Assembly (NCBI GenBank): GCA_013151015.1
Contig: JAADJA010000091.1
Span: 21,891 to 85,890, forward strand
DNA length: 64,000 nt
Direction: 5' to 3'
Source: Chlorobiota bacterium
GTDB lineage: Bacteria > Bacteroidota > Bacteroidia > Bacteroidales > JAADJA01
The notes under the pieces are model-generated. The model had not been told where the DNA came from, did not search any database, and saw only the letters and a list, made by a program, of their open reading frames with translations. This document shows, piece by piece, positions 2,252 to 57,049 of this stretch (positions are counted from its first letter, which is position 1; every line of letters begins with the position of its first letter). The position numbers and the translations under genes were made by a program.

Positions 2252-3199
2252 TTGAAAATAAAAAAAGAATTTAAAATAGGCTTCGTGGTCTTGGTTGCCC
2301 TTGGTTTGCTTTATTGGGGATTTAATTTCCTGAAAGGCGAGGATGTGTTTAGCCGCGAACGGGTTTATATCGCCGTATATAATAATGTGGGCGGGCTTGG
2401 AAAAGCGAATCCTGTTTTTATCAATGGCCTTCGTGTCGGGCAGGTCCGTGATATGTATTTTCAATCGGAAACCACTTCGGAAGTGGTGGTGGAAATGATA
2501 ATCACCAATCCGGTACCCATCCCAAAAAATTCGGTGGCCAATATTTTTGATGCCGACCTGTTGGGTTCCAAGGCCATTGAGATTTCCCTTGGCAATTCAA
2601 AGGAACATGCCGTTTCGGGGGATACCTTGATCGCTTCTAAGGAGATTTCGTTGAAAGACCAGGTGAGCAAGCAGTTCGAGCCCTTGAAGGATAAGGCGGA
2701 ACAACTTATGTTGTCAATTGATACAATGCTGATCGGGTTGAACCAGTTGTTCGATAAATCAAATACGGCAAATATCTCGAAGAGCGTGGAGTATATCGCC
2801 AACTCCTTCCAGAACCTTGAAAGCACTACTGCCACCCTCGATTCGATGATGACGGAACAGAAAAAACGGATCGGGCATATACTCGTGAACACGGAATCCA
2901 TTTCGAGGAACCTTGCTGAAAACGGCGAAAATTTCGATCATATCATGGCCAACCTTTCTTCTTTTTCCGATTCGCTTGCCCAAACAAATTTCAAATCGAC
3001 CATAAACTCGGCCAATAAAGCAATGAACGACGTGGCGGCCATTGTGAAGCGGATCAACGATGGGGAGGGCAGCCTTGGTTTGTTGGTGAACGATGATTCC
3101 CTTTACATCGAACTGGCCAAATCGAGTCACGAGCTGAACCTTTTGCTTGAGGACATCCGAAAGAACCCCAAAAAATATGTGAAGGTTTCGGTGTTCTGA
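2252..3199 (+). CDS. MlaD/MCE-family protein
   Basis: 315-aa ORF with an N-terminal TM helix (FKIGFVVLVALGLLYWGF), then the MCE core YIAVYNNVGGLGKANPVFINGLRVGQV and a long helical tail. Confidence 0.75.
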   Translation: MKIKKEFKIGFVVLVALGLLYWGFNFLKGEDVFSRERVYIAVYNNVGGLGKANPVFINGLRVGQVRDMYFQSETTSEVVVEMIITNPVPIPKNSVANIFDADLLGSKAIEISLGNSKEHAVSGDTLIASKEISLKDQVSKQFEPLKDKAEQLMLSIDTMLIGLNQLFDKSNTANISKSVEYIANSFQNLESTTATLDSMMTEQKKRIGHILVNTESISRNLAENGENFDHIMANLSSFSDSLAQTNFKSTINSANKAMNDVAAIVKRINDGEGSLGLLVNDDSLYIELAKSSHELNLLLEDIRKNPKKYVKVSVF

Positions 3200-3326
3200 A
3201 ATTACTATCCATAGTTTTGTCCACAACATATTCCCATATCCATGGTAGAATTCCGCCATTTTTTTTATAGTGGTTTTCTGCCATGCTTTTCTTGAAACCT
3301 TTGTTTATCCTTGTCGCCTGGATTGT

Positions 3327-3451
3327 AAAAAGTTTACCGCAATCAGCGCAAAAGCAAAGTGAACCTGAACAACTGGCAAAAGGGGATGTACGTGGCCGTG
3401 GTTTACAGCAATGGCCTCCCGGCAGGGGAATGTAAGTTTGTGGTACAATAG
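3327..3451 (+). pseudogene. Decapitated 3' remnant of a T9SS C-terminal-sorting-domain gene (last ~40 codons only)
   Basis: Aligns without gaps to 8077-8201, the 3' end of the 6573-8201 gene, with 18 differences in 125 nt by my manual count. It translates to ...SKVNLNNWQKGMYVAVVYSNGLPAGECKFVVQ* versus ...SKVSLINWQKGMYVAVVYSDGFPVGERKFVVQ*. No upstream ORF body is present. Confidence 0.7.
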
Positions 3452-3648
3452 CCCCTAACCCGTTGGGCCGAAGCAAGCCCGTGCGCTGGCGTCCCGACGG
3501 GTTGAAAAGAAACATTCCCCGACCTGAAGGTACGGGGAAACTCATGGCCGAAGGGCAAAACGGGAGCATCACTTTACGGACTGTAATGGGCAGCATTGTT
3601 CCCCGACCTGAAGGTACGCGGAAACTCATGGGCTGCGGTCAAAAACGA
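3452..3648 (+). repeat. GC-rich hairpin-rich element, copy 1 (candidate structured RNA / repeat)
   Basis: Differs from 8202-8398 at 9 of 197 positions with no indels. It has an 11-bp stem AACCCGTTGGG (3457-3467) / CCCGACGGGTT (3493-3503). It also has two copies of a 10-bp bulged hairpin TTCCCCGACC-TGAA-GGTACGGGGAA (3515-3539 and 3599-3623). Confidence 0.65.
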
Positions 3649-3723
3649 AGTGGACGTATAAAGCGATGCTTCCAGGTCTTGCGAACCCTTAAAGATGTGG
3701 AAAAAACCATTAACTTTGGGTCT

Positions 3724-6393
3724 ATGAAAAAAACAGATACTTCAATTGTGATTTTATTTCTGTTGTTGGCTGCATTGTCCAATAATATTTATTCCCAAAA
3801 CGCCGGTATTACATATAAACGCCTGTACGTTGACAGGGACACGGAAATAAAGGACGGGACGGCCGTTACCGAAACGATAAGGGTAAGGAAAGGCGCAACA
3901 CTTACCGTCAACTGCAAACTCTCCATGGGGCAAAACGCCAAACTCATCGTAGAACCCGGCGGCAAGCTCCATATCAATGGAGGCACCCTCACCAACGCCG
4001 AGGAAGGCAAAACCTGGTACGGCATCGAAGTTTGGGGCGACCCCGCGGCAGGGCAAAACCCCATTGATCAGGGATGGGTGCTGATACAAAACGGGGCAAC
4101 CATCGAAAACTCCGTTCATGGCATAGTCGCCAGCCATTTGGAAGAAGACTCCACTTCCGGGCCGGGGGAACTGACACCCAATCCCGCTTATGCCGGGGGG
4201 ATCGTACAGGCAATTGGGTCCGGTTTTATCAACAACCAATCAACTGTCTGGTTCTATGCTTATCCACAATCCAGTGCAAGTTGGTTCACAGATTGCGATT
4301 TCGAGATAAACGATGGTTATTTTGGCAGTGAAGACCCCGGCTATTTTGTGCGCATGGACGGCATGAAGGGCATTGACTTCACCATTTGCAGGTTCAACAA
4401 CAACACCTCGGGCAATTGTTTTGGGAGCGGTATCTACAGTTTCAATTCAGGGTTTAACGTAAAAGGCAAAAGCACGGGCCTGCCCGCCCCCTTTGATTGG
4501 GAACACAGTAAGTTCAACAACCTAAGGTACGCCGTTTACGCCACTTCGGGCGGCACGCTGAATATACCCGACATAAGCCATTCGCAGTTCACGGGCAACT
4601 ACCGGGGCGTTTATTTTAGCGGTGTCCGCAACAGTATCGTGGAATATTGCGATTTTGTGACCGGTCCTGCTTGTGCAGGTGCCAGTTACGGTATCTACCT
4701 CGACAGGTCCACAGCTTACACCATAGAGGATAACACTTTCTCGCAAGGCGATGGCAACGGCATTGGCCTGGTGGTGAACAATTCCGGGGGCGACCCCAAC
4801 AGGATATACCGCAACAGCTTTACGGGCCTGAAATTTGGCATATTGGCACAGCAGGAAAACCGTGCGGCGGACGGCAACGGCCTGGTGCTGAAGTGCAATA
4901 CCTACAACGAAAACGGCCACGACCAACTCGTTTTGTGGGACGGCCTTTTCATAAGTAAAAAAGCAGGTATCGCAGAAGGCCAGGGCGCCGACATTCCACA
5001 GCCCTATGGGCCTGCAGGGAACTTGTTCAGTTGGACAGGCCCAGAAGGTACGGCAACAGATATATACAATGAAGCCAATAACATTACTTATTATTATCAT
5101 ATTGATGATGATTATCCTCTTAGACCAAAATATGTTTCAGTAGGAAAAGTAATCCCTGAACCCAATAACCATCCAGAGGCCTATTGGGATCCTGAGGAAA
5201 GTTGCCCGCCCTCCGAAAGCGGGGGCGGCACAGGGGACACGGAAGGCCTAAAAAGCCTTGTGGCAACATCTGCACAAAAGGCCGATTCGGTGCAAAACAT
5301 TATCACCATCCTGAAGGACGGGGGGAGCACCGATAACTTGAAAACCGAAGTGGCACTGAGCACACCACCGGAAGCTTTCTCCATATATGCCGAACTTATG
5401 GGAAGCTCCCCCTATATTTCCGATACGGTAATGGCCGCTGCCATCGAAAAAGAGGAGGTGATCCCCAACGTGATGATACGCGACGTGATGGTGGCTAACC
5501 CCCACAATGCCAAGAACAACGAACTCCTTGAGAAAATAGACGAACGCAGCAACCCCATGCCCGATTACATGAAGGCCCAGATAGTACAGGGGGGCGGGCT
5601 GGTATCGCTCTTCGAGGACCTGCAATCACAAAAGGCCTTTTATGTGCAACAACATGTACTGGCACTGAACGCATTGGAAAGGAGCTACCTTGCCGACACC
5701 TTGGCCCCCGTAGCCTCCATTGACAGCCTTAGGGCATTGCTCCAAAACGAAAACAAACTTGCCGCAAAACAGAGCCTGGTGTTTTTGGACATGGGGCGAG
5801 GTGCATGGGGCGAGGTGCAAAACACTCTGGAGGCCATACCACAAAGCTTTAACCTTACGGAAGAAGAAGAGGAAGAACATGCACAGCTCCTGACCTTTAC
5901 AGGTATTGTGGCAAACCTGGCGCAGGAAGGGAAAGGCATCATGGAGGCGGACAGCGCCCAAATAACCGCACTCTTTGGCATTGAGGCATCCAGGACTGGG
6001 ATTGCCGCTGTTTTTGCACGGAACGCACTCCTGGCATTGGACGAAATAAGCTATGATGAACCTGTACTGATGCCCGACTTCCTGAAATCAAGCACCATAG
6101 CCGATGAACACGCCAAACTGATGAAGGCCCTGGAAGAACACCATTATTTAAGGGTGTTCCCCAATCCGGCAAGCGATTACCTCGTAATTGCCCACGAACT
6201 GGAGGCATTGCAGCAAAGCCCCTATGCCGAAATATATGGATTAAAGGGTGGGAAACGGATGCACGTCAAGCTGTCGGGTTTGCACAACCAGGAAACCATC
6301 GACATAAAGGGACTGAAACCGGGGGTTTATATTGTAAGCCTCTTTGCGGACAACAAAGAACTGGAATCGGTGAAATTCACAAAAGTGAAATAA
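3724..6393 (+). CDS. Secreted protein with T9SS type-A C-terminal sorting domain (possible beta-helix repeats)
   Basis: I moved the start from the track's 3463 to the ATG at 3724, which gives the signal peptide MKKTDTSIVILFLLLAALSNNIYSQ. The 3463-3723 extension lies in the repeat element. The C-terminus LRVFPNPASDYLVIAHE...GVYIVSLFADNKELESVKFTKVK is a typical T9SS CTD. The many long antisense ORFs suggest it is GC-richer than its neighbours. Confidence 0.8.
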   Translation: MKKTDTSIVILFLLLAALSNNIYSQNAGITYKRLYVDRDTEIKDGTAVTETIRVRKGATLTVNCKLSMGQNAKLIVEPGGKLHINGGTLTNAEEGKTWYGIEVWGDPAAGQNPIDQGWVLIQNGATIENSVHGIVASHLEEDSTSGPGELTPNPAYAGGIVQAIGSGFINNQSTVWFYAYPQSSASWFTDCDFEINDGYFGSEDPGYFVRMDGMKGIDFTICRFNNNTSGNCFGSGIYSFNSGFNVKGKSTGLPAPFDWEHSKFNNLRYAVYATSGGTLNIPDISHSQFTGNYRGVYFSGVRNSIVEYCDFVTGPACAGASYGIYLDRSTAYTIEDNTFSQGDGNGIGLVVNNSGGDPNRIYRNSFTGLKFGILAQQENRAADGNGLVLKCNTYNENGHDQLVLWDGLFISKKAGIAEGQGADIPQPYGPAGNLFSWTGPEGTATDIYNEANNITYYYHIDDDYPLRPKYVSVGKVIPEPNNHPEAYWDPEESCPPSESGGGTGDTEGLKSLVATSAQKADSVQNIITILKDGGSTDNLKTEVALSTPPEAFSIYAELMGSSPYISDTVMAAAIEKEEVIPNVMIRDVMVANPHNAKNNELLEKIDERSNPMPDYMKAQIVQGGGLVSLFEDLQSQKAFYVQQHVLALNALERSYLADTLAPVASIDSLRALLQNENKLAAKQSLVFLDMGRGAWGEVQNTLEAIPQSFNLTEEEEEEHAQLLTFTGIVANLAQEGKGIMEADSAQITALFGIEASRTGIAAVFARNALLALDEISYDEPVLMPDFLKSSTIADEHAKLMKALEEHHYLRVFPNPASDYLVIAHELEALQQSPYAEIYGLKGGKRMHVKLSGLHNQETIDIKGLKPGVYIVSLFADNKELESVKFTKVK

Positions 6394-6572
6394 TTTTCAA
6401 TAAACATGCCCTCCCCATGGTGTCATTCCGATACCATTATATGGGGACAGGCACAGGAGTGAGGAATCCCCTTGTCATAAAAGGCTGGGGAAAATACAAC
6501 AACGGCCCAATTTATCATGGGGATTCCAACTTCATTTCAATGATTGGATTAAATACATCAAACAGAAACAAC

Positions 6573-8201
6573 ATGAAATCAAAAATAAAAACACTATTGG
6601 CCTTTGTATTGGCTCTCCAGTCCCTGGTCTTGTTTTCACAACCATGGCCTAAATATTATGGTGAACCGAACAAATACGATTTTTCAAAAGACATTGTCGA
6701 ATCCTATGACAAAGGATACTTGATGTGCGGCAACATACAGGTTTATTCAAATGAAGCTGAACAATGGGGCTGGATAATAAAAACAGATATTAACGGTGAA
6801 GTGATATGGGACAAAGTCCTTGAAAACCAAATCCACTTAACATATATTAGGGCAATTGAGAAAACAATGGATGGTGGATTATTGGTTTGTGGGCTTGTTT
6901 ACCCAAGCATATACTATGCAGACCCTTTTGTGATGAAATTAAACGCCTGTGGGGAAAAAGAATGGTGCAAGCAATTTTCGGGAGCATATGACAGCTCACC
7001 TTCGGCAGCAGACATCAAGGAAACCGAAACCGGCGAAATAATCCTGTTGGTAAATGAATGGGGAACCTCCCCCGAAGAAACCATGCACCTTTTCAAATTA
7101 AGCCACGAGGGCGATGTCCTGTGGAAAAAACCCTTTTGCAGTGGGTATGTACACCCAGAAGGGGCGATACCACTCGGGCATAGAGTTCTTATAACATCTG
7201 AAAGTGATTTTTTAATTGCGGGGGAAGTTTACTGGGAAAACCCCTGGAACCCTGGTGGCACAAAAGTTTTAAGGCCATTATTTGTTATGGCTGATAGTTT
7301 GGGAAATGAAAAATGGGTACTTCCTTTTGGGTTACAAGATACTATTGCAGGTGAATCCTATAATGTGATTGAAAAAACGAAAAATGAATTTATTGGTATA
7401 GCTTCTCTCTGGCCAACACAAAATGAAATAAAGCCATTGTTTATCAAGTTTGATAATGAAGGGGCCTCACTTGATTACCAGATTATAAATGTAAAAGAAA
7501 TAGATACAAGTTTTAGCGAAGGACACCTTGGATATATTTTTTTAAAAGATTCGTCATATTACCTAAGTGGAACATTTGAAATTTATTCAACTGAGGTCGG
7601 TCCAGTTACAGAGGTTATTATTGACACAAACCTTTTTGAAACAGAACCACAAATAGTAGATCATTTTATTCATGATAGTCTATTTTGGCCTTACACGTTT
7701 GATACAACATATAACCAAAGATTGATAAGCAACTCCACCTTCAAAGAAACCGGCAACTGGGACATAGCTTTGTCCAAGCTCAACCTTGACCTGGAATACG
7801 ATACCCTGGACCCGGGCAACTATGTTTACGACAGCCTGTGCAGCACCCCCGGCCTTCCGCAGAGCGGTTTTATCTTTTTGGACGATTGCGATATTGTTAC
7901 GGGCATGGATGTGCCCTCACCGGAAGAGTATTATGCCTTTTTGGAAACTATCCCCATAAAGGCTTTTCCAAACCCTGCAAGCGAAGGACAGATTACTTTT
8001 GAATTTAAAAATACCGAACACCATAAAAACATGGAGCTAAGGTGTTTTGATATTTTCGGGAAGGTAATCCATAAAGAAAAAGTTTACCGCTACCAGGGCG
8101 AAAGCAAAGTGAGCCTGATCAACTGGCAAAAGGGGATGTACGTGGCCGTGGTTTACAGCGATGGTTTCCCTGTTGGGGAGCGCAAGTTCGTGGTCCAATA
8201 A
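6573..8201 (+). CDS. Secreted protein with T9SS type-A C-terminal sorting domain
   Basis: Start chosen at ATG 6573, giving the signal peptide MKSKIKTLLAFVLALQSLVLFSQ. The C-terminus IKAFPNPASEGQITFEF...GMYVAVVYSDGFPVGERKFVVQ is a T9SS CTD. Confidence 0.8.
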   Translation: MKSKIKTLLAFVLALQSLVLFSQPWPKYYGEPNKYDFSKDIVESYDKGYLMCGNIQVYSNEAEQWGWIIKTDINGEVIWDKVLENQIHLTYIRAIEKTMDGGLLVCGLVYPSIYYADPFVMKLNACGEKEWCKQFSGAYDSSPSAADIKETETGEIILLVNEWGTSPEETMHLFKLSHEGDVLWKKPFCSGYVHPEGAIPLGHRVLITSESDFLIAGEVYWENPWNPGGTKVLRPLFVMADSLGNEKWVLPFGLQDTIAGESYNVIEKTKNEFIGIASLWPTQNEIKPLFIKFDNEGASLDYQIINVKEIDTSFSEGHLGYIFLKDSSYYLSGTFEIYSTEVGPVTEVIIDTNLFETEPQIVDHFIHDSLFWPYTFDTTYNQRLISNSTFKETGNWDIALSKLNLDLEYDTLDPGNYVYDSLCSTPGLPQSGFIFLDDCDIVTGMDVPSPEEYYAFLETIPIKAFPNPASEGQITFEFKNTEHHKNMELRCFDIFGKVIHKEKVYRYQGESKVSLINWQKGMYVAVVYSDGFPVGERKFVVQ

Positions 8202-8398
8202 CCCCCAACCCATTGGGCTGAAGCAAGCCCGTGCGCTGGCGTCCCGATGGGTTGAAAAGAAACATTCCCCGACCTGAAGGTACGGGGAAACTCATGGCCA
8301 AAGGGCAAAACGGGAGCATCACTTTACGGACTATAATAGGCAGCATTGTTCCCCGACCTGAAAGTACGGGGAAACTCATGGGCTGCGGTCAAAAACGA
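8202..8398 (+). repeat. GC-rich hairpin-rich element, copy 2
   Basis: Lies exactly 4750 bp from copy 1. The stem AACCCATTGGG / CCCGATGGGTT keeps pairing through a double change (G-C in copy 1 becomes A-T at 8212/8248). Confidence 0.65.
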
Positions 8399-8440: not shown

Positions 8441-8476
8441 AAAAAGCCGTTTCAATTGTTTTGAAACGGCTTTTTC
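8441..8476. terminator. Bidirectional intrinsic terminator between convergent genes
   Basis: AAAAAGCCGTTTCAA-TTGTT-TTGAAACGGCTTTTT: an 11-bp perfect stem flanked by an A-run and a T-run. It sits between the T9SS gene/element (+) and hsp20 (-). Confidence 0.8.
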
Positions 8477-8497: not shown

Positions 8498-8920
8498 TCA
8501 GGCAACTTTTATTTGCTTGGGTTTCTGGACCTTCTCAACCTTTTTTGGTATTTCCACTACAAGTATCCCCAAATTGTTGGAAGCTTTTATTTTTCCGGAA
8601 TCTACTGAATCGGGCAAGGAAAACCTTCTTTCAAAGGGTTTTATGCTGAATTCCTTGCGGGTGAAGTCTTCGTTTTCCGTCATCAGTTCCTGATCCGAAG
8701 AAATCGTAAGAACGTCTTTGTCGAGTTCGATTTTGATATTCTCCTTGTCACGTCCGGGAACCGCCACATGGATCTCGAATTTCTTATCATCTTCCTTGAT
8801 GTTCACATCCGGCAGGTTTGTTTGCCTGTTTTCGTTGTCCATGAACGAATTGAAATTGCTTTCAAAAAAATCATTTACCGGATTGGGTAAAAAAATCCTG
8901 CTTTTAAGTGTTGGTAACAT
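8498..8920 (-). CDS. Hsp20/alpha-crystallin family small heat-shock protein
   Basis: 140-aa ORF. PDVNIKEDDKKFEIHVAVPGRDKENIKIELDKDVLTISS...FSLPDSVDSGKIKASNNLGILVVEIPK matches the alpha-crystallin domain pattern. Confidence 0.9.
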   Translation of the reverse strand: MLPTLKSRIFLPNPVNDFFESNFNSFMDNENRQTNLPDVNIKEDDKKFEIHVAVPGRDKENIKIELDKDVLTISSDQELMTENEDFTRKEFSIKPFERRFSLPDSVDSGKIKASNNLGILVVEIPKKVEKVQKPKQIKVA

Positions 8921-10540: not shown

Positions 10541-11890
10541 ATGAACCTTACACAACTTAGTGCTGTTTCGCCGGTGGACGGTCGTTACAGAAAAGCAACA
10601 GAAAACCTTTCCTATTATTTTTCGGAAGCCGCACTTATAAATTACCGCGTATTTGTGGAGGTGGAATATTTTATCGCTTTGTGCGAATTGCCGCTTCCGC
10701 AACTGCTTGGTTTTAAACATGGCCGTTTTGAGGATTTGCGGGAAATATGCCGTAATTTTTCATTTGAGGAAGCCCAAAGGGTAAAGGACATCGAGAAGGT
10801 GACCAACCATGACGTGAAAGCTGTGGAATATTACCTGAAAGAGGAATTCGACAGATTGGGCCTTGGGGAATTCAAAGAGTTTATCCATTTCGGATTGACC
10901 TCACAGGATATTACGAATACAGCTGTGCCCTATGCTTTAAAACTTGCCTGTAACGATGTTTTGTTCCCTGAAATAGAATTGATAATCGAAAAACTTACGG
11001 CACTTTCCAAAGACTGGAACAACATCGCTATGCTGGCACGCACACATGGGCAGCCCGCATCCCCGACTATCCTTGGAAAAGAAATCGCCGTTTTTGCCGA
11101 AAGGCTCATACTGCAATTTAAGTTGATGAAAGATTTGCCATTTACGGCAAAACTGGGTGGGGCCACGGGGAATTTCAATGCACATCAGGTTGCTTATCCC
11201 GAAATTGATTGGGCAGGTTTTGCGAACAGGTTCCACGAAAGCATGGGCTTGCGTAGGCAACAAACAACAACCCAAATAGAGCATTACGATTTCCTGGCTG
11301 CATTTTTCGACAACATGAAACGGATCAACACCATTTTGATTGATTTGAACCGGGATATCTGGGCCTATATTTCGATGGATTATTTTAAGCAAACAATTAA
11401 GAAAGGTGAAGTGGGTTCTTCCACAATGCCACACAAAGTGAACCCCATCGACTTTGAAAATTCCGAAGGGAACCTGGGTTACGCCAATGCGGTTTTTACA
11501 CATCTGTCAGGGAAGTTGCCGGTTTCAAGGTTGCAGCGCGACCTTACCGATTCCACTGTGGCAAGGAATATTGGAGTTCCTATTGCCCATACGATCATAG
11601 CTTTCAAATCTTTGCTCAAAGGTCTTGGGAAACTGATCCTGAACGAGGAAAAAATCAAAAAGGATTTGGATGCCAATTGGGCTGTTGTAGGTGAGGCCAT
11701 ACAGACTATCCTCCGCCGTGAAGGCTTTCCGAAGCCCTATGAGAAACTAAAAGACTTGACGCGCTTAAATACCACGGTTACCGCTGATTCAATAAAGGCA
11801 TTTGTGGGATCCCTTGAAATATCGGATTCCGTTAAGGAAGAACTTTTGAAGATTACACCTTCAAATTATACAGGGATAAAGATGGTATAA
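10541..11890 (+). CDS. purB: Adenylosuccinate lyase
   Basis: 449-aa ORF. It begins LSAVSPVDGRY and carries the fumarate-lyase signature GSSTMPHKVNP. Confidence 0.95.
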   Translation: MNLTQLSAVSPVDGRYRKATENLSYYFSEAALINYRVFVEVEYFIALCELPLPQLLGFKHGRFEDLREICRNFSFEEAQRVKDIEKVTNHDVKAVEYYLKEEFDRLGLGEFKEFIHFGLTSQDITNTAVPYALKLACNDVLFPEIELIIEKLTALSKDWNNIAMLARTHGQPASPTILGKEIAVFAERLILQFKLMKDLPFTAKLGGATGNFNAHQVAYPEIDWAGFANRFHESMGLRRQQTTTQIEHYDFLAAFFDNMKRINTILIDLNRDIWAYISMDYFKQTIKKGEVGSSTMPHKVNPIDFENSEGNLGYANAVFTHLSGKLPVSRLQRDLTDSTVARNIGVPIAHTIIAFKSLLKGLGKLILNEEKIKKDLDANWAVVGEAIQTILRREGFPKPYEKLKDLTRLNTTVTADSIKAFVGSLEISDSVKEELLKITPSNYTGIKMV

Positions 11891-12120: not shown

Positions 12121-13947
12121 ATGTTCAAAAAATACTTAAGGATATTGGCTTACGTAAAACCCTATGCGGGATACGCCATTCTGAACGTCATATTTAATTT
12201 TTTTGTAATCGTGTTTTCACTGGTTTCATTTGTGATGCTGATCCCGTTCCTTAACCTCTTGTTTGGCAAGGAAGCCCTGGTAACCGAAAACCCCGGATTC
12301 TCCTTTAGCCCCGATTCTGCTATGGAATACCTGAACTATTTCATCAGCCAGATAATTATTTCGCATGGGAAAGTGCAGGCACTTATTTTCATTTGCCTGT
12401 TTTTGCTTGGTACGTTCTTTTTCAGGAACCTGTTCCGTTTCCTTGCCATGTTCTACCTTGCAAATGTCCGTATAGGTGCTGTTAAGGGAATCCGCAATGA
12501 TGTTTATAATAAACTGCTCATCCTTCCCCTCTCATTTTATTCCGATCACAAAAAAGGTGATATCATCGCACGCATTACAACGGACGTACAGGAGGTGGAA
12601 TATTCCATCATGAACTACCTTGAAATGATCGTGAGGGATCCAATCACCATTGTGGCCTATTTTATCACCCTTTTTTTAATGAGCACACAACTTACCTTGT
12701 TCGTAATAGTATTGCTGCCCATCACAGGTTATCTGATTGGCCGGATCGGGCGTTCCTTACGAAAAGAATCAAAAATAGGCCAGGAGAAATTTGCTGGTTT
12801 GATGGCCATTATCGAGGAATCCATTTCAGGTTTGCGCATTATCAAGGCGTTTACGGCCATTGACTTTTCAAATGAAAAGTTCACAGGCTTGAACGGCAGC
12901 TATTCCAAAACCTTGTTGAAGATTTATCGCACAAGGGATTTGTCATCTCCGCTAAGCGAGTTCCTTTCGTCGGCTGTAATAGTTGTGGTACTTTGGTTTG
13001 GTGGGAGGTTGGTATTGTCGGATGATGCATCCATAACGGCTGCGGTCTTTATTACCTATATTGTGATTTTTTCACAGATTATCCCTCCGGCAAAAACATT
13101 TGCAACAGGTTTTTACAGTATCCAAAAGGGCCTGGCTTCAGCCGAAAGGGTGTTTGAGATTTTGGATGCTTCGGAAGTCATTGAGGAAAAACCGGATGCA
13201 AAACCCATCCAGTCTTTCAAAAAGGAAATTGAATACCGCAATGTTTTTTTCAAGTACCAAAATGAATATGTTTTACAGAACATAAATTGTACAATCCCCA
13301 AAGGGAAAATAATTGCGATTGTTGGCCCTTCCGGTGGAGGGAAGTCAACCTTTGTGGATATGTTGCCCCGTTTTTACGATACGATCAAAGGGGAAATATT
13401 TATTGATGGTGTTTCGTTGAAAGATTATAAGATCAACGATATCCGTGGCTTGATGGGGATTGTGACACAGGAGGCTATTTTGTTCAATGATACGGTGTTC
13501 AACAATATCGCATTTGGAAAAGAAAACGTGAGCGAAGAAGATGTGATTAATGCCTCCAAGGTTGCCAATGCCCATGAATTTATCGAAAAAATGGAAAACG
13601 CTTACCAATCCAATATCGGCGACCGTGGCACGAAGCTTTCAGGAGGGCAAAGGCAACGCCTAAGTATTGCCCGGGCTGTTTTGCGCAACCCGCCCATCTT
13701 GATAATGGACGAAGCAACTTCTGCTTTGGACACAGAGTCGGAACGCCTTGTACAGGATGCACTTGCAAATGTAATGTCGAACAGGACTTCCATCGTGATT
13801 GCCCACCGGCTTTCCACCATCATCCATGCCGATGAAATCATCGTTTTGCAAAAAGGTGAAATCGTTGAACGGGGAACCCATCACGAACTTTTGGAGAAAA
13901 AAGGGGTTTACCGGAAATTACATGATTTGCAAACTTTTGATTCATAA
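12121..13947 (+). CDS. ABC transporter permease/ATP-binding fusion (MsbA-like exporter)
   Basis: 608 aa. Six-TM N-terminal half, Walker A GPSGGGKST, signature LSGGQRQR, Walker B ILIMDEATSALD. Confidence 0.9.
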   Translation: MFKKYLRILAYVKPYAGYAILNVIFNFFVIVFSLVSFVMLIPFLNLLFGKEALVTENPGFSFSPDSAMEYLNYFISQIIISHGKVQALIFICLFLLGTFFFRNLFRFLAMFYLANVRIGAVKGIRNDVYNKLLILPLSFYSDHKKGDIIARITTDVQEVEYSIMNYLEMIVRDPITIVAYFITLFLMSTQLTLFVIVLLPITGYLIGRIGRSLRKESKIGQEKFAGLMAIIEESISGLRIIKAFTAIDFSNEKFTGLNGSYSKTLLKIYRTRDLSSPLSEFLSSAVIVVVLWFGGRLVLSDDASITAAVFITYIVIFSQIIPPAKTFATGFYSIQKGLASAERVFEILDASEVIEEKPDAKPIQSFKKEIEYRNVFFKYQNEYVLQNINCTIPKGKIIAIVGPSGGGKSTFVDMLPRFYDTIKGEIFIDGVSLKDYKINDIRGLMGIVTQEAILFNDTVFNNIAFGKENVSEEDVINASKVANAHEFIEKMENAYQSNIGDRGTKLSGGQRQRLSIARAVLRNPPILIMDEATSALDTESERLVQDALANVMSNRTSIVIAHRLSTIIHADEIIVLQKGEIVERGTHHELLEKKGVYRKLHDLQTFDS

Positions 13948-14704: not shown

Positions 14705-15487
14705 TTGCCCATGACAAAAATTATCGCTGACCACGAAATAGTTGACATCCGTATTCCGGCCAATGGGCATCTTTTCATTGTTTTAAAATCCCCGGTCGAT
14801 ATGCCTACGGTCTTTCCGGGTAATTTTGCCGAGTTGCATATCGCCAAATCCCCCGAGGCTTTCCTTCGTCGGCCTTTTGGCATTCTGGACGTGGATTACG
14901 ATAAGCGGCTTATCTCGTTTTATGTAAAGATTGTTGGAAAAGGGACGCGCGAACTCGCAAATTACAAGCAAGGTGAACAATTAAATGTGATTTATCCGCT
15001 GGGAAATTCATTCACGGTTTCGGAAAGAAACAAAGAAGTCTTGATTGTTGGAGGTGGTTCGGGGATAGCGACCTTTATCCTGTTGGGAAAATCGCTGAAG
15101 CAAAATAACGTAAAGGCAACCTATCTGATCGGTGGAAGGGCAAAAGAAGATATTTTGTTGACCAATGAATTGAAAAAGTTCGGACAGGTCCTGATAACCA
15201 CGGAAGATGGCAGTCTTGGGGAAAAAGGATTTGTGACCGATCATTCCATCTTCAAGTCAGGTAGTTTTTGTTTTGACAAAATATATACATGTGGCCCGGA
15301 ACCCATGATGAAAGCCGTTGGGGAAATAGCGCACAAACATCAAATTGATTGCGAGGTCTCATTGGAGAACATGATGGCCTGTGGTTTTGGGGTTTGCCTG
15401 TGCTGTGTTACCGAGACCAAGGAAGGCAACCAACGTGTTTGCATGGAAGGGCCGGTGTTCAATACAGGTACACTGCAGTGGTTTTAG
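14705..15487 (+). CDS. pyrK: Dihydroorotate dehydrogenase B electron-transfer subunit
   Basis: 260 aa. FAD/NAD-binding fold (RRPFGI, LIVGGGSGIA) and a C-terminal 2Fe-2S motif CGFGVCLCC...C. It is adjacent to pyrD. ATG 14711 is an alternative start. Confidence 0.85.
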   Translation: MPMTKIIADHEIVDIRIPANGHLFIVLKSPVDMPTVFPGNFAELHIAKSPEAFLRRPFGILDVDYDKRLISFYVKIVGKGTRELANYKQGEQLNVIYPLGNSFTVSERNKEVLIVGGGSGIATFILLGKSLKQNNVKATYLIGGRAKEDILLTNELKKFGQVLITTEDGSLGEKGFVTDHSIFKSGSFCFDKIYTCGPEPMMKAVGEIAHKHQIDCEVSLENMMACGFGVCLCCVTETKEGNQRVCMEGPVFNTGTLQWF

Positions 15488-18833: not shown

Positions 18834-18906
18834 GATTTCGTAGCTCAGTTGGTAGAGCAACGGCCTTTTAAGCCGTGGGTCCTGGGTTCGAGCCCCAGCG
18901 GAATCA
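18834..18906 (+). tRNA. tRNA-Lys (anticodon UUU)
   Basis: 73 nt. Acceptor GATTTCG/CGGAATC, D-arm TAGCTCAGTTGGTAGAGC, anticodon arm ACGGC-CTTTTAA-GCCGT, T-arm CTGGG-TTCGAGC-CCCAG, discriminator A. CCA is not encoded. Confidence 0.95.
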
Positions 18907-35291: not shown

Positions 35292-38200
35292 ATGCTAAAT
35301 AAGATAATAAAATATTTTTTGGAAAACAAGCTGGTAACGAGTATGGTTGTACTGGGGTTCGTTCTCTGGGGGATATCAACAGCACCTTTTGACTGGGGCG
35401 AAGGCCTGATACCAAGGGATCCCGTACCAGTAGATGCCATTCCCGATATTGGCGAAAACCAGCAAATAGTGTTTACTGAATGGATGGGTCGTTCGCCACA
35501 AGATGTTGAGGATCAGATTACATATCCCTTGACGGTAGCCATGTTGGGAGTCCCGGGGGTAAAAACCATTCGCAGTAGCTCTATTTTTGGGCTATCGACC
35601 ATTTATATCATCTTTGAAGATAATATTGAGTTTTACTGGAGCCGGACTCGGATACTCGAAAAGCTGAGTTCCCTTCCATCCGGTACATTGCCTTCGGGGA
35701 TACAACCGGCACTTGGCCCCGATGCCACAGCACTGGGCCAGGTATATTGGTACACATTGGAAGGCCGCAATCCCGAAACAGGTGAGCCCACAGGTGGCTG
35801 GGACCCCCAGGAATTAAGGACTATACAGGACTTTTATGTGGGATATGCCCTTACTTCGGCCGGAGGGGTTTCGGAGGTGGCTGCCATTGGCGGATTTGTA
35901 AAAGAATATCAGGTTGATATCGATCCCGATGCCATGAAAGCGGCCAACGTAACAGTTGCACAGATAATGAAGGCCGTAAAAGAGAGCAACCTGGATGTCG
36001 GTGCCAGGACAATGGAATACAACCGGGCCGAGTATATCGTAAGGAGCCTTGGCTATGTTCAAAACCTTGATGACCTAAGAGAGGCCGTTGTTGCGGTAAA
36101 CGACAATACACCCATACGCATAAAAGATGTGGCCGTTGTTAATTATGGACCCGAAACCCGTAGGGGCGGGCTTGACAAAGGCGGTGCCGATGCTACAGGG
36201 GCAGTAGTTGTTTCGCGCTATGGCGAGAATCCACTTGAGGTGATAAACAATGTGAAAAAAGTAATCGAAGATATTTCGCCCGGCCTGCCCAGTAAAACAT
36301 TGCCCGATGGGACAATTTCAAAAGTTACCATAGTGCCTTTTTACGACCGTTCAGGCCTGATCAAGGAAACCATTGGTACTTTGGAAGAGGGCTTGGGTCT
36401 CGAAATACTCATCAGTATCATAGTGGTGATGATCTTGGTGCTCAACCTTCGCGCATCAATCTTAATATCCAGCTTATTGCCCATCGGCGTACTGATGACT
36501 TTTATTACCATGCGCAAATTCGGGGTTGATGCCAATATCGTGGCCTTATCGGGCATTGCAATCGCTATTGGCGTAATGGTGGATGTGGGCATTGTTTTTA
36601 CCGAGAACATAGTCCGACATCTCGAGTTTCCCGAGAACAAAGGTATCAGGGGAAAAAAACTGCTTGTCGTGATTTACGAGGCAACCATTGAGGTCGCATC
36701 GGCCGTGATCACTGCCCTGGCAACAACCGTGGTTAGTTTTTTACCGGTATTCGCTATGCAGGCAGCAGAAGGGAAACTGTTCAGGCCTTTGGCTTTTACG
36801 AAAACATTCGCCCTCTTATCGGCTTTGGTGATTGCATTGGTCGTTATCCCGGCCATGGCCCATGTGTTGTTTAATATCAATTTTGAGAAAAAGCGGATCA
36901 AGCGTATTTGGAACGGATCACTGATCGCCCTGGGGATCGGGCTGGCAATTTATTCAGGAATCCTGCTGGCTCTCGTACTTGTTGTTTTTGGGATAAATAA
37001 CCTGCTTGAAAACCGCTGGCCCGAAAACAAAAGAAAATATGTCAACATCATCAATATAGTGATTTCGCTAGTGGTAGTGGTTTATTTCCTTACCCATGTC
37101 TGGATGCCAATGGGCGCCCAAAACAGCATGTTGGTCAACTTCCTCTTTGTTTCGGTGCTCATTGGGATTGTGCTTGGGTCACTTATGACCGTTGTTCACT
37201 TTTACTCTTATATATTAAGATGGTGCCTTAACAATAAATGGACTTTCTTGTTTATCCCAATAGCAATTATCCTTTTCGGGATTACGACATGGCTTGGGTT
37301 CAATAGTGTTTTTGGCTTTGTTGCAGATGGGGTCAATGTGGTTGGGATAGACCTACGGCAAACAAGTGGTTGGCAGGCAATTGACAAAAAACTCCCAGGG
37401 GCAGGAAAAGAGTTTATGCCTGCCTTGGACGAAGGTTCGTACCTGCTTATGCCTACCACCATGTCGCACTCGGGTGTTGAAGAAAACATGGAGGTCATAC
37501 GGATCGTTGACCAGAAAGTAGGTGCCATACCCGAAGTTGAATCGGTCGTGGGGAAATGGGGCCGTGTAAAATCAGCTCTTGACCCAGCACCTATTTCAAT
37601 GTTTGAGAATACCATCAATTATAAATCGGAATTTATGGTAAACGAGGCCGGCTACCGGATTCGTTTCAAGGTGGACGATGACGATGCTTTTATGCTTAAA
37701 GACGGCACCACTTATAAGTTCGGGGAAGACGAATTCCGACAGATAGCAAGGGAAGACCTGATCGAAGACAAGAAAAACGGGAATTACTTCCGTCAATGGC
37801 GCGAAGAAATCAAATCGCCCGATGATATATGGCAGGAAATCGTAAAAGCGGCCAAAGTGCCCGGAATGACTTCCGCCCCAAAATTGCAGCCTATCCAAAC
37901 GAGATTGATCATGCTTTCGACAGGAATGCGGGCTCCCATTGGCATAAAGGTTTTCGGACCTGATTTGGAAACAATAGAAAAAGTGGGCCTCGATTTGGAA
38001 AAAATCCTGCAACAGGTGCCGAGCATCGAACGCTCATCGGTATTTGCCGACAGAATCGTGGGAAAACCGTATTTGGAATTTGATATTGACCGGAAAGAAA
38101 TTGCCCGGTATGGGCTTACCATGAAGGACATTCAAAACTACATTGAGGTTGCCATTGGTGGCATTAAGCTCTCCACTACCGTGGAAGGCAGGGAACGGTT

Positions 38201-39119
38201 CCCGATCAGGGTGCGTTATGCACGTGAATTCAGGGATTCCCCCTCGGAAATTGGGAATATCCTTATCCCAACACCATCAGGGGAGCAAGTGCCATTGATC
38301 GAATTGGCTGAAATTACCTATCGCCGTGGGCCGCAGATTATCAAAAGTGAAGATACTTTTCTGGATGGTTATGTGATCTTTGACAAAAAACCCGGCTATG
38401 CAGAAGTTGATGTGGTGGAAGATGCGAAGCGCATCATCGAATCCAAGATCGCTTCCGGTGAGTTTGTGGTGCCGCCTGGCGTGAATTATAAATTTACGGG
38501 AAATTACGAAAACCAAATCAGGGCTACCAAGCGGTTGGCAATTGTTGTTCCCCTGTCGCTGCTGGTAATTTTCCTGATCCTTTATTTCCAGTTTGGGAAT
38601 GTGCCCACTACAGGCATGGTTTTTTCAGGGATATTCGTGGCATTCTCGGGAGGGTTCATTATGATTTGGCTTTATGGCCAGGGCTGGTTCCTGAATTTTG
38701 ATGTGGCAGGGATGAATATACACGCACTTTTCCAAATGCACACCATTAACCTTAGTGTGGCCGTCTGGGTCGGGTTTATTGCCCTGTTTGGTGTGGCAAC
38801 GGACGATGGCGTGATCATGGGTACCTATATTATGCAAACCTTTGACAAGGAGAAGCCAAAAACCATAACTGCAATAAGGGATGCCGTCCTTCATGCCGGC
38901 AGCAAAAGGGTAAGGCCTGCAATGATGACAGCGGCAACTACCATTATCGCATTGGTCCCCATACTTACCTCAACAGGAAAAGGATCTGACATAATGGTTC
39001 CTATGGCAATTCCAACTTTTGGTGGAATGATAATACAAGTAATGACCATGTTCATCGTGCCGACATTGTACAGTATGTGGCAGGAAGGAAGATTAAAACG
39101 TCAATTAAAAAGAAATTAA
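35292..39119 (+). CDS. CusA/CzcA-family heavy-metal efflux RND permease (long form)
   Basis: 1275 aa. The N-terminus [35 protein letters not shown] is typical of HME-RND pumps. There are 12+ TM segments and a ~200-aa extra soluble insert around residues 750-830. Confidence 0.9.
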   Translation: [1275 protein letters not shown]

Positions 39120-39120
39120 T

Positions 39121-40368
39121 ATGAAAACGATAGGACTAATAATAGGTGTTCTCTTTGGCCTTTTGATAAGTGGTAACTCTTATGCACAAGAATACTTGGA
39201 CAAATACCTGAAAACAGCGGCAGAAAATAATCCGGGCTTAAAAGCAAAATTTAACGATTACTTATCTGTTGTGGAAAAAGCCCCCCAAATAGGGACGATC
39301 CCGGATCCGGTAGTGGCGTTTGGCTATTTTATTTCACCTGTGGAAACCAGGGTAGGCCCTCAGAATTTTGTAATATCAGCCGCTCAGACATTCCCGTGGT
39401 TTGGGAAACTGAGCACAGCAGAAGATGCCGTTATCGAACTTGCCAATTCAAAGCTCGAAGTGTTTGAAGATGCCAGGTCGAAGTTGTTTTACGATATTAA
39501 ATCTGCCTACTATAATTTATACTTTGTTCAAAAAGGTATAGGGATCACAAGGGAAAACATTGATATTTTGTCAACATTTAGGCAACTTGCTTTAATAAAA
39601 CTTGAATCGGGGAAAGCTTCTGCGGTCGATGAGCTAAGGGTTGAGATGGAGATTGCGGATATAGAAGATCAATTGGCTTATTTGCTCGACAGCAAGTACC
39701 AATTAGAGGTAAAGTTCAACAACTTATTGAATGTGGACAATCAAAGCGAAATTGTACTGCCAACTGTTTTGTTGAACGAAGGCCTTTCCTTTAGCAGGTC
39801 GCAGTTGATGGATAGCATAGCAGCGAACAACCACGGCATAAAGCAAATAGAACACAGGATACTTTCCTGGGAAAACCGGCGGTATTCGGCCAGGAAATCC
39901 GAGGGGCCGAGTTTTTCGATAGGGCTTGATTATATTAATGTTGGGAAAATCGATAATCCTTCCCTTGAACTAAGCCAAAATGGAAAAGATGTTTTCCTTG
40001 CCAAAGTTGGCATCAGTATTCCATTGTACAGCAGAAAGTATGATGGGATGATACAGGAAGCAAGTTTCCAGATTGAGTCGGCAAGTTTCGAGAAGATAGA
40101 TAAGGTAAACCAGCTTAATACACTGTTTGAACTTGGGTACAGGGATTTTAGGGATGGTGAAAGGCGTATAGCCTTGTACATCAAGCAACTACAATTGGCC
40201 AAAAATGCACTTGACATATTGCTGGCCGAATATTCTACTGATGGGCAAAACTTCGAAGAAGTACTGCGCATGGAAAGAAAAGTGCTTAAATACGAGTTGG
40301 AACTCGACAAAGCAAGGGCAGATAACAATGCTGCGGTTGCATTCATTGATTATTTATTAGGTAAGTAA
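39121..40368 (+). CDS. TolC-family outer-membrane efflux protein
   Basis: 415 aa with a signal peptide and two OEP repeats. The start lies 1 nt after the RND stop. Confidence 0.85.
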   Translation: MKTIGLIIGVLFGLLISGNSYAQEYLDKYLKTAAENNPGLKAKFNDYLSVVEKAPQIGTIPDPVVAFGYFISPVETRVGPQNFVISAAQTFPWFGKLSTAEDAVIELANSKLEVFEDARSKLFYDIKSAYYNLYFVQKGIGITRENIDILSTFRQLALIKLESGKASAVDELRVEMEIADIEDQLAYLLDSKYQLEVKFNNLLNVDNQSEIVLPTVLLNEGLSFSRSQLMDSIAANNHGIKQIEHRILSWENRRYSARKSEGPSFSIGLDYINVGKIDNPSLELSQNGKDVFLAKVGISIPLYSRKYDGMIQEASFQIESASFEKIDKVNQLNTLFELGYRDFRDGERRIALYIKQLQLAKNALDILLAEYSTDGQNFEEVLRMERKVLKYELELDKARADNNAAVAFIDYLLGK

Positions 40369-40415
40369 AAGTGTAAATTTTAAAAAGCAATCGCTTTATA
40401 TAAAAACAAAATGAT

Positions 40416-42244: not shown

Positions 42245-42826
42245 ATGGAAAATTCAATAAAAATCCCCTTGTTTGTGGTTTTGCCCTTACTGGCAATTTT
42301 TTCGACCACTGTTTATGCACAGCACAACCATGGCAACATGGAAGGGGGAATGCACAATATGGAAATGATGCAAGCCCCTCATGGGGGTGAATTAAAAAAA
42401 GCGGGCAAATACCATGTAGAAATGCTTGCCGATTTGTTGCTCAAAAAAAACCAGTTGGCCTTCTATCTTTTTAAAGGTAGTTTAAAACCGGTTTCCCTGA
42501 AAGGGATAACGGGGACAATTGCTTTTGAACAGGATGATGGCACATCACGGGTTGATACCCTGGTATTGCAAGGGGACGCCCGCTTTGTGGCACAATTGAA
42601 GGACAAGAAAGCTTTTAAATGCAAAGTAAGGTTCTTGGTGAAGGGCAAAACTGTTTCAGCGGATTTTTCGCATAAAGGCCTGGAGTCAAGTGTTCTTGGC
42701 AATTACCGTTGCCCAATGCATACGGATGTTGTTGCCAATGAACCTGGAAACTGCCCCAAATGCGGGATGGAACTGGTATTGAAAGAGAAGGAAGGAACAG
42801 GCAATGGCCATCGGCACAATAATTAA
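42245..42826 (+). CDS. Periplasmic His/Met-rich protein with C-terminal heavy-metal-binding domain
   Basis: Signal peptide, QHNHGNMEGGMHNMEMMQAPHGG, and C-terminal YRCPMHTDVVANEPGNCPKCGMEL. Confidence 0.75.
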   Translation: MENSIKIPLFVVLPLLAIFSTTVYAQHNHGNMEGGMHNMEMMQAPHGGELKKAGKYHVEMLADLLLKKNQLAFYLFKGSLKPVSLKGITGTIAFEQDDGTSRVDTLVLQGDARFVAQLKDKKAFKCKVRFLVKGKTVSADFSHKGLESSVLGNYRCPMHTDVVANEPGNCPKCGMELVLKEKEGTGNGHRHNN

Positions 42827-42838
42827 AACCAATATGAT

Positions 42839-43642
42839 ATGAAAACTTTAAAGTTGCTATCATCGATGAAGAACAGTAAAGGACTGATTGTCCATACCAT
42901 TGTAGGGTTGTTGATCGGGTATTTCCTGCTGCACCCCGTTAGCATGGTCATTTATTGGTTTGAGATGAACGATATGGATTTTACCATGGCTAATTTCACC
43001 AGGGTTTTTTACGATAGCATTGCCCATACGTTTAGCCTGCACATGATGCCCATGTCGGTGGCTTTTGCTTGCCTTGGCGCAATCATTGGTTTTGGTTCGG
43101 GCTTATATTATATGTCTATCAAGAAAAAGGACCATGCCTTGTACGGGAAAAGACAGCTTTTGCAGCAAAGTATCCCCATTATGATAGAAGAAGGTGAAAA
43201 TGAATTTGTTGAGTTCAAACCGTCATTAAGGTACGACTACCGGCAAATCAAAACGGATAAAAACCTTGAAGATGTTATCCTAAAGTCTATTGCGGGTTTT
43301 TTAAATGCAAAAGGGGGGACATTATTGATAGGCGTAAATGCCAATGGTGAAATATTGGGCCTTGCAAACGACTATTGGACATTGAAGAAGAAGAACAAAA
43401 ATGGGTTTCAGCAGCGGATAATATTGTTGGTGTCCAATGCTTATGGAAAGGATGTTTGTTCAAAAATACATATTTCTTTTCACCTGATCGGGGACAAGGA
43501 GATATGTACCTTGCTTATCGAACCTTCTAAAGAACCTGTTTATTTTGTCGAACAGAACCGAACGCTTTTCTTTTTGAGGATGGGCAATATTACGAATCCA
43601 CTCACTACAAGTGAAACAGTTAAATACCTACAAACAAATTGA
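42839..43642 (+). CDS. Membrane-anchored AlbA_2 (Schlafen-type putative nucleic-acid-binding) domain protein
   Basis: Two predicted TM helices (GLIVHTIVGLLIGYFLLHPVSMVIYWF; MMPMSVAFACLGAIIGFGSGLYYM). They are followed by EGENEFVEFKPSL...SIAGFLNAKGGTLLIGVNANGEILGL...LRMGN, the AlbA_2 pattern. Confidence 0.7.
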   Translation: MKTLKLLSSMKNSKGLIVHTIVGLLIGYFLLHPVSMVIYWFEMNDMDFTMANFTRVFYDSIAHTFSLHMMPMSVAFACLGAIIGFGSGLYYMSIKKKDHALYGKRQLLQQSIPIMIEEGENEFVEFKPSLRYDYRQIKTDKNLEDVILKSIAGFLNAKGGTLLIGVNANGEILGLANDYWTLKKKNKNGFQQRIILLVSNAYGKDVCSKIHISFHLIGDKEICTLLIEPSKEPVYFVEQNRTLFFLRMGNITNPLTTSETVKYLQTN

Positions 43643-43659
43643 ATTAATAAACAAAAACA

Positions 43660-44175: not shown

Positions 44176-44203
44176 TATTTATAAACACTAAAAAAAAACA
44201 AAC

Positions 44204-56986: not shown

Positions 56987-57049
56987 CAGGGATTGCAATT
57001 TGCAAAACGGAATAAAACAACATAAACAATCAATAAAAACAATTTGACA

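Follow-up and report, generated by a model that had tools for sequence, protein, structure and literature searches.

Introduction

In Borrelia, stem-loops of IS605-type insertion sequences (IS) occur free-standing and at the 3' ends of genes for lipoproteins, and while some of them are kept as RNA-type hairpins with G-U pairs, others dissipate (Delihas 2009, PMC2775950). Terminal imperfect hairpins that Y1 transposases recognize are common to the ISC elements, which encode IscB, and the TnpB-only IS605B elements, in which tnpB lies on the antisense strand; the Y1 (HUH) enzymes recognize such hairpins on single-stranded DNA, and palindrome-associated transposable elements (PATEs) and repetitive extragenic palindromic (REP) sequences are protein-less forms of elements of this type (Kapitonov et al. 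2016, PMC4810608). In Bacteroidetes there are Y1 subclasses with atypical flanking hairpins that lack GTAG, the repeats of subclass 2.6 included (PMC6006769), and the same paper cites a role for E. coli REP sequences in protecting or processing mRNA. Here we analyze a GC-rich hairpin element of 197 nt that occurs twice in a 64-kb stretch of contig JAADJA010000091.1 from a Chlorobiota bacterium (the whole stretch is called the window below), next to genes for cargo proteins of the type IX secretion system (T9SS).

The 197 nt are a mosaic of two unrelated hairpin modules, A and B. In the reading that we favor, at a probability of roughly 55%, this mosaic was copied together with a T9SS cargo gene tail of about 125 nt; module B would be a transposase-less IS605-type relic or a PATE- or REP-like sequence, and module A a hairpin selected behind stop codons. 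By analogy, the nearest precedent is the set of IS605 stem-loops in Borrelia (PMC2775950): there too, transposon-specific stem-loops stand without a transposase gene, at the 3' ends of genes and gene fragments for surface or secreted proteins in duplicated paralog families. The window differs from that case in phylum and in hairpin sequence, it has only a 21-nt hairpin in common with the IS family, no parent IS being known in the host, and the hairpin that is selectively kept, module A, is not of the IS type. No new kind of system is indicated. All results come from sequence analysis, and the Pfam domain scans took in 36 open reading frames (ORFs) of the window.

Results

The repeat pair and its setting

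The features that make up the repeat pair and its surroundings are the following.

3329-3451, + strand: remnant of a T9SS C-terminal domain (CTD), the 5' part of repeat copy 1; its last 40 codons plus TAG, compared with the end of the intact gene, read KVYRNQRKSKVNLNNWQKGMYVAVVYSNGLPAGECKFVVQ and stop
3452-3648, + strand: 197-nt element, copy 1 (module A and two module B units), upstream of gene 3724-6393
6573-8201, + strand: intact T9SS cargo gene with a Por_Secre_tail match, 100% identical to database protein P0001 (542 aa); its 3' end, 8077-8201, is the coding part of copy 2
8202-8398, + strand: second copy of the 197-nt element, with module A at 8207-8253 and the cores of B1 and B2 at 8267-8287 and 8351-8371; 76 bits with the covariance model R1 (see below)
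8441-8475, no strand assigned: canonical intrinsic terminator, bidirectional, which separates the cargo gene from a convergent hsp20 gene (8498-8920); perfect 15-bp inverted repeat, arms 100% complementary, flanked by A-runs and T-runs

The two copies, 3327-3648 and 8077-8398, align as a direct repeat without gaps, shifted by 4750 nt. They differ at 9 of the 197 non-coding positions (3452-3648) and at 18 of the 125 coding-derived positions (3327-3451; Fisher p = 0.0032), which confirms the earlier observation that the non-coding part is better conserved than the gene fragment attached to it; all factual statements of the preliminary description were borne out when we recounted them. The divergence is patchy, with six differences in 3327-3369, none in 3370-3409, 15 in 3410-3469 (25%) and six in the 179 nt of 3470-3648 (3.4%), and the tract of low divergence begins within module A rather than at the stop codon. 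The excess conservation of 3470-3648 could reflect constraint on module A together with a recent conversion tract, or mosaic recombination among paralogous gene tails, two explanations that these data cannot separate. The right flanks part exactly past 3648 and 8398, without a common tetranucleotide, while the left flank is common to both copies, which therefore count as one independent insertion. The 197 nt as a whole are predicted to fold only modestly better than shuffled sequences (z = -2.0 and -2.45 for the two copies).

Copy 2 is placed between the stop codon of the cargo gene (8201) and the terminator at 8441-8475, and thus inside the presumptive 3' untranslated region (UTR), a position that this layout makes plausible. 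Copy 1 follows a CTD remnant of 41 codons, stop included, that lacks a gene body and has a further stop codon directly in front of it; in tblastn, the proteins of the related locus L175 match this remnant only at 3329-3445. The earlier placement of the element downstream of T9SS genes is thus correct for copy 2, behind an intact cargo gene, and for copy 1 extends to the 41-codon CTD remnant only. No terminator-like site was found inside the element, and the separate terminator at 8441-8475 agrees with the original judgment that these hairpins are not classic terminators. The element does resemble an intrinsic terminator in having a GC-rich stem directly behind a stop codon, but it has no T-run, its loop of 21-22 nt is conserved, the canonical terminator stands apart from it, and module A is also found between the co-transcribed genes pabB and pabC (see below).

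Open reading frames cross the element in both directions (3463-6393 on the + strand and 3054-3629 on the - strand), so we considered that the region might be translated, either as an N-terminal extension of the gene at 3724-6393 or as a small protein. ORF 3463-6393 does cross copy 1 without a stop and shares its frame with the downstream gene. However, in copy 2 a TGA at 8219-8221 closes this only long frame, an ATG at 3724 starts the downstream gene with a typical signal peptide, a 1-nt indel among the copies of module A ruins any common frame, and substitutions track base pairing rather than codon positions. We give translation of the region almost no credence, and the element is, as first proposed, non-coding in spite of its open frames.

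Two further points concern the cargo gene and its tail. Its ORF is 594 aa long from a first ATG at 6417, 52 codons ahead of the start of P0001, and the true start is probably 6573. A diversity-generating retroelement was rejected as a candidate: A stands in copy 1 at only 8 of the 18 differences in the coding part, and there is no reverse transcriptase among the tested ORFs.

Module A is a covarying hairpin

Two features of the window carry the analysis of module A, in addition to the copy at 8207-8253.

3457-3503, + strand: module A, copy 1; stem 3457-3469 with 3491-3503, 21-nt loop GAAGCAAGCCCGTGCGCTGGC; R1 79.8 bits
24356-24403, + strand: third, diverged solo copy of module A, found by an nhmmer profile search of the window; AACCTTTTTGGTC / 22-nt loop / GACCAGAAAGGTT; R1 81.1 bits

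In both copies of the 197-nt element the stem of module A has 13 positions, made up of 12 pairs and one C/T mismatch. Between copy 1 and copy 2 it changes from AACCCGTTGGG/CCCGACGGGTT to AACCCATTGGG/CCCGATGGGTT, with G3462-C3498 becoming A8212-T8248. This compensatory change had been noted at the outset within an 11-bp stem; the stem in fact covers 13 positions, and it covaries at four pairs across nine copies. The loop, about 21 nt long, is conserved and purine-rich (GAAG.A.G.C.G..C), and the feet read ..CT/TA and then AACC, the hairpin opening with AAC and closing with GTT. The stem has no extrahelical bases and carries one internal mismatch in four of the nine copies.

To score the pairing we used nine copies of module A from four kinds of locus; the covariance model R1 was built from six copies and run with its filters off. 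Over the 13 pairs, 96.6% of cells are paired, and both sides have changed at four pairs (16 cells). The covariation score is 0.483, compared with at most 0.2 when the partners are slid against each other, and none of 500 shuffles equals it; likewise, 0/500 shuffles match the number of paired cells and 0/500 the number of cells changed on both sides. Two other statistics are weaker, since 126/500 shuffles match the count of pairs with double changes and 249/500 the count of pair types. G.U occurs in eleven cells (6, 2 and 3 at three pairs), which pair on the + strand only, and one of the three pairs is C-G in three copies. The covariation check that the preliminary description had called for thus comes out in favor of pairing: module A is a structured motif backed by compensatory changes across independent sequences. 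The sense orientation and the G.U pairs of the + strand suggest that it acts as RNA, although a structure in single-stranded DNA would leave an identical signal. A candidate 3-bp helix inside the loop (GCC/GGC) was dropped, being lost in L181 and L184 on inspection of the alignment.

Neither module A nor module B matches a family of Rfam 15 at the gathering threshold, or up to E = 10 except for a chance match to NrsZ. Module A has no match in the literature searched, and a literature search with the hairpin sequence returned no paper.

Module A behind unrelated genes

The third copy in the window begins on the last base of the stop codon of pabB (chorismate-binding), within a pabB-pabC spacer of about 157 nt. 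It has kept the sequence of the loop, while the stem has changed in sequence yet remains complementary. Searching the window with R1 gave no copies beyond these three. The further copies that the preliminary description proposed to look for do exist for module A, as this third copy and as copies at relatives' loci, whereas the combination of A and B is still found only twice.

Relatives were reached through protein homologs. Orthologous copies of module A follow the pabB stop in L178, L179, L181 and L182, where the pabB protein shares 93-80% identity with that of the window. In L180 the gap between pabB and pabC is 7 nt. Among the homologs at 65% identity, pabB and pabC overlap as called in 7 of 8 contigs (given as L183-L185 and L187-L189), and in L186 pabC lies 40 nt downstream. 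Because relatives have an overlap or a short gap, the spacer of 120-166 nt headed by module A is an insertion. R1 also found a second type of locus, in which module A lies about 24 nt past the stop of a gene for a 1623-aa Peptidase_C10 protein (L183, L184 and L185; E from 3e-7 to 8e-6); the same position is empty in L188. A fragment consisting of the first 26 nt of module A follows the second CTD gene in L175. All known copies are in the sense orientation relative to the upstream gene and start 0-24 nt past its stop.

The pabB site allows us to compare what happened to the hairpin and to its surroundings after insertion. Between genomes, module A is 75-89% identical and the adjoining coding DNA 73-88%, while the remaining spacer is 46-61% identical, which is the level of shuffled sequence. 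Since module A was kept while the spacer was randomized, the hairpin must have been under selection after it was inserted, for its pairing as well as for its loop sequence. Homology between the pabB spacer outside module A and the rest of the 197-nt element is not significant.

Two side observations belong to these relatives. In L181 the same pabB-pabC spacer holds a second hairpin (5590-5661) that has the AACCTGTT / AACAGGTT foot of module A and another loop (R1 15.5 bits, E = 0.024). In L175 an extra tandem paralog of the cargo gene (2449-4052) is split by a run of N, and behind its CTD only the initial 26 nt of module A are present. Outside the relatives, a scan of the genome collection with the loop pattern GAAGNAAGCCNGTGCN{2,3}TGGCG gave at least 117 matches in the coding DNA of genomes with high GC, which we put down to chance, and none of those listed had the stem; nor does module A occur at IS-element ends in 377 kb of IS loci.

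The position of module A at gene 3' ends, with its presence varying among relatives, brings to mind a cassette recombination site such as an integron attC site, with the T9SS genes as cassettes. The hairpin starts with AAC and ends with GTT, as the feet of attC sites do, and GTTGAAC in L179, L182 and L184 fits the GTTRRRY consensus. We consider this extremely improbable. Unlike in attC sites, the stem lacks extrahelical bases and stops short of RYYY/RRRY, and the loop is conserved in sequence; the copies of the window do not fit the R' motif (GTTGAAA and GTTGGGA), the ORFs of the window that were tested include no integrase, and the pabB-pabC site is an operon spacer and not a cassette array.

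No specific tie to T9SS cargo genes

The preliminary description placed the element downstream of T9SS genes and suggested, among other possibilities, a signal for T9SS cargo cassettes; a specific link of this kind is not supported. Module A also stands behind pabB and the C10 peptidase gene, and of the T9SS CTD genes in the window, those at 3724-6393 and 44917-45723 have no element. In the closest ortholog of the cargo gene (L175, 75% identity) the sequence that follows is unrelated and contains no recognizable element; a decayed version of it (GTGCGTTGGCG ... CCCCGAGCTG) was considered and dropped, because 65 of 500 shuffles score as well. The homolog at 67% identity (L176/L177) also lacks the element and adjoins a convergent gene. 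The element thus has no specific tie to T9SS.

As a separate observation, a 55% relative (L190) has two adjacent T9SS paralogs that each carry a common 12-bp hairpin about 10 nt past the stop (CCGCTTAGCACTT...AGTGCTTAGCGG, with one T.T mismatch; 11630-11670 and 13850-13885), unrelated to module A. The general pattern is that the tails of paralogous cargo genes are duplicated along with any hairpin behind them.

Module B carries a transposon-terminal hairpin

The remaining part of the element consists of two tandem units, 84 nt apart.

3515-3539, no strand assigned: module B1 hairpin, TTCCCCGACC-TGAA-GGT(A)CGGGGAA; its core 3517-3537 is the IS605-superfamily terminal hairpin; unit about 3511-3594
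3599-3623, no strand assigned: module B2 hairpin, in which C3619 breaks one pair; core 3601-3621; unit from about 3595 to 3648

Each unit has a hairpin CCCCGACC-TGAA-GGT(A)CGGGG followed by AAACTCATGG, a small variable hairpin and CAAAA(A)CG. The TGAA hairpin with its bulged A had been reported to occur twice per copy, and so it does: the 33-mer TTCCCCGACCTGAAGGTACGGGGAAACTCATGG is found four times in the window, at 3515, 3599, 8265 and 8349, with 0-1 mismatch, and not at all in shuffles. B1 is intact in both copies of the element. In B2 a pair is broken in each copy, by G3619C in copy 1 and by another change, G8363A, in copy 2, and since the hairpin is disrupted differently in each there is no sign of current constraint on module B. 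Whichever strand is read, G3619C breaks its pair; G8363A leaves C.A on the + strand and a G.T wobble on the - strand, a weak hint that the strand relevant for module B is opposite to that of module A. In the 889-aa beta-helix/T9SS gene downstream of copy 1, the segment 3917-3947 contains CATGGGGCAAAACG and AAACTCAT, similar to the tail of module B (AAACTCATGG..GGGCAAAACG) in changed order, probably by chance.

When the 21-nt core of module B was used to scan metagenomes, 57 loci were found, none of them with the flanks of the window. At about 50 of these the exact hairpin lies 8-10 nt inside a sharp border where conserved sequence gives way to variable sequence, for example as TTGACATCCA-hairpin-ATTCCC... 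or GTCAGCAA-hairpin-CTTC... In L174 (3151-3171) and L124 (1165-1185) it lies just 3' of a TnpB gene (OrfB_IS605 and Cas12f1-like_TNB), in antisense, and in L171 (9968-9988) it lies upstream of an ORF with the RRXRR domain (IscB-type), in sense. Because the hairpin is antisense to tnpB and sense to iscB, what these loci have in common is one DNA strand, not one RNA, and this strand arrangement would fit recognition by a Y1 transposase, as described for ISC and IS605B elements (PMC4810608). The element in L174 matches annotated TnpB / IS891-IS1136-IS1341 elements on cyanobacterial plasmids, and its 3' part, with the hairpin, also matches Streptomyces plasmids, where it is annotated as TnpB. In addition, seven loci (L120, L125, L127, L129, L131, L138 and L166; for example L131 7607-7990) contain a non-coding family of about 375 nt that begins about 10 nt before the hairpin and that looks like a protein-less (PATE-like) derivative of the TnpB-element end that would hold the guide RNA.

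Module B thus has in common with IS605B (TnpB-only, IS1341-like) and ISC elements an exact identity of 21 nt to a hairpin that is placed 8-10 nt from the terminus next to the omega-RNA guide side, an identity that in our judgment cannot be chance. It differs from them in that the window has no tnpB, iscB or guide-RNA scaffold, in its flanks (CATT..AAACTCATGG) and in having two tandem units. The earlier suggestion of a recombination or mobilization signal is in part sustained by this identity to the IS605-superfamily terminal hairpin; against it, no transposase was found in the window and the element is known only from its two locally duplicated copies. A match to an IS200-like transposase at 14768-15016 was rejected, being the dihydroorotate dehydrogenase B Fe-S subunit. 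Viral contigs and plasmids were also searched and did not contain the element.

The same hairpin could be taken for part of a guide-RNA-like locus, the pair of units being an orphan mini CRISPR array (of clustered regularly interspaced short palindromic repeats) or an orphan omega-RNA scaffold, and in TnpB elements this hairpin is indeed the last stem ahead of the guide. Moreover, GTTCCCCG...CGGGGAAAC has what we take to be the shape of a type I-E CRISPR repeat. This is very improbable all the same: there are two repeats only, the sequence behind each repeat is conserved as well (AAACTCATGG..CAAAACG) and hence holds no CRISPR-type spacers, the remaining guide-RNA scaffold is absent, and no cas, tnpB or iscB gene was found in the 64 kb.

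Comparison with PATE, REP and the bacterial interspersed mosaic elements (BIMEs) gives a mixed picture. As in those families, we find short extragenic imperfect hairpins with a bulged base, several types of module combined in mosaics, placement just behind genes, presence that varies among relatives, and a plausible RNA-level effect on mRNA 3' ends. Unlike in those families, copies are very few, a GT[AG]G foot is missing, neither termini nor a target site can be defined, and no cognate Y1 gene is seen in the window. Specifically, the feet of module B read CATT/CCCC, or GTTT/CCCC on the other strand, neither of which contains GT[AG]G. The two B hairpins are direct and not inverted as in REPINs (REP doublets that form hairpins), and module A has a conserved 21-nt loop, unlike REP. 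With regard to PATE-type elements, module B has the Y1-type subterminal hairpin; all four hairpins lie in the duplicated copies, and no dispersed ones were found in L175-L190 or, with the flank of the window, in viral contigs. On this evidence the window sequences fall outside REP, for want of GT[AG]G and of copy number, and resemble PATEs in the hairpin only.

Other features of the window

The 889-aa gene also contains an exact 14-nt tandem duplication (CATGGGGCGAGGTG twice, at 5790-5817). The gene mlaD occupies 2252-3199, and there is a tRNA at 18834-18906. Three large ORFs span 35292-42239, with an outer-membrane efflux protein (OEP) in the middle; downstream of them, in 42245-44773 and 57044-57511, there are small ORFs with heavy-metal-binding (HMBD) domains, a Schlafen/AlbA_2 ORF and a DUF3347 ORF.

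Discussion

If the two modules are treated as one, the whole 197 nt could be a dedicated structured RNA for T9SS cargo genes, acting as a cis-regulatory 3' UTR or as a 3'-derived small RNA. Several of our measurements agree with this: copy 2 lies between a stop codon and a terminator, module A has covariation and strand-specific G.U pairs, the non-coding part has diverged less than the coding remnant (p = 0.003), and the folding z-scores are -2.0 and -2.45. We nevertheless regard a single RNA as unlikely. Module A stands alone after pabB and after the C10 peptidase gene, module B has no relatives in the related genomes, and B2 has an uncompensated disruptive change in each copy. Furthermore, the other T9SS genes of the window and the homologs at 75% and 67% identity manage without the element, copy 1 is placed behind a dead gene remnant, and Rfam has no match. 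Of the 3' UTR or structured RNA that was originally envisaged, what stands is the position of copy 2 and the selected structure of module A; that the 197 nt form one unit does not.

At the other extreme, the element could be a neutral by-product of one recent segmental duplication, with hairpins that have no function and a compensatory pair that arose by chance or as a conversion artifact. Only two copies of the A+B combination are known, 4.75 kb apart, in direct orientation and with a coding tail attached, the patchy divergence resembles conversion tracts, and the closest ortholog has no recognizable element (65/500 shuffles being as good). This explanation does not hold for module A, for which it is refuted by conservation with covariation at independent loci and genomes and by its retention at the pabB site amid a randomized spacer. 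Nor does it account for the identity of module B to a transposon terminus over 21 nt. As an account of the whole element we judge it improbable.

We therefore return to the two-module mosaic copied with a gene tail, and to how it may have come about. Local segmental duplication, or recombination among paralogous gene tails, copied the mosaic together with the last ~125 nt of the cargo gene, and copy 1 would be what was left once the gene body was lost. Module B may be a relic, or a PATE/REP-like derivative, of an IS605-superfamily end that is now decaying, made or moved on single-stranded DNA by a Y1 enzyme that could be encoded elsewhere. Module A was inserted just past the stop codons of unrelated genes in this lineage and then kept by selection; it may have dispersed as single-stranded DNA, and in the transcript it probably acts as a 3'-end or intercistronic hairpin, for example by protecting the upstream mRNA or as a protein-binding or processing site, in the manner of E. 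coli REP sequences. Through the direct repeats, the two cargo genes that they enclose could also be deleted or duplicated, which would be a consequence of the arrangement and not a designed function.

A number of points weigh against this mosaic reading. The lower divergence of 3470-3648 could mean a recent conversion tract and not constraint. The similarity to IS ends stops 1-5 nt outside the module B hairpin, and neither tblastn nor the Pfam scans found a Y1 transposase, TnpB or IscB in the 64-kb window. No second independent insertion of module B was found in about 150 kb of relatives' DNA (L175-L190) or in viral contigs, so that termini, target site and mobility are all putative for this module. 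Module A is rare, with three copies in 64 kb, two of them via the duplication, and no more than one at each of the relatives' loci (2-22 kb) when searched with R1. It has no GT[AG]G foot, and its loop is far longer than in typical REP or IS605 hairpins. Finally, an origin of module A purely at the RNA level and one at the DNA level cannot be told apart from sequence alone.

A bolder variant would make the repeats part of a cargo-carrying IS605-type unit. Identical Y1-type hairpins in the same orientation flank a 4.75-kb segment with the two T9SS cargo genes (3724-8201), and a Y1 enzyme supplied in trans could peel out and paste this cassette, with module A traveling along as an RNA hairpin selected by the host. 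The way the hairpins point and the boundary that both repeats have at 3648/8398 are compatible with such a unit. No second insertion, empty site or transposase for such a unit was seen, and we regard it as a long shot.

If the mosaic reading is correct, a Bacteroidales-like lineage repeats the pattern of the Borrelia plasmids, in that hairpins of single-strand transposons outlive the transposons themselves at the tails of genes for surface and secreted proteins. Such tail hairpins would be duplicated with the gene tails and could drive the gain and loss of paralogs. Module A is the more useful product of the analysis: it offers a tractable case for the role of post-stop hairpins in Bacteroidota, where the biology of 3' UTRs is little known.

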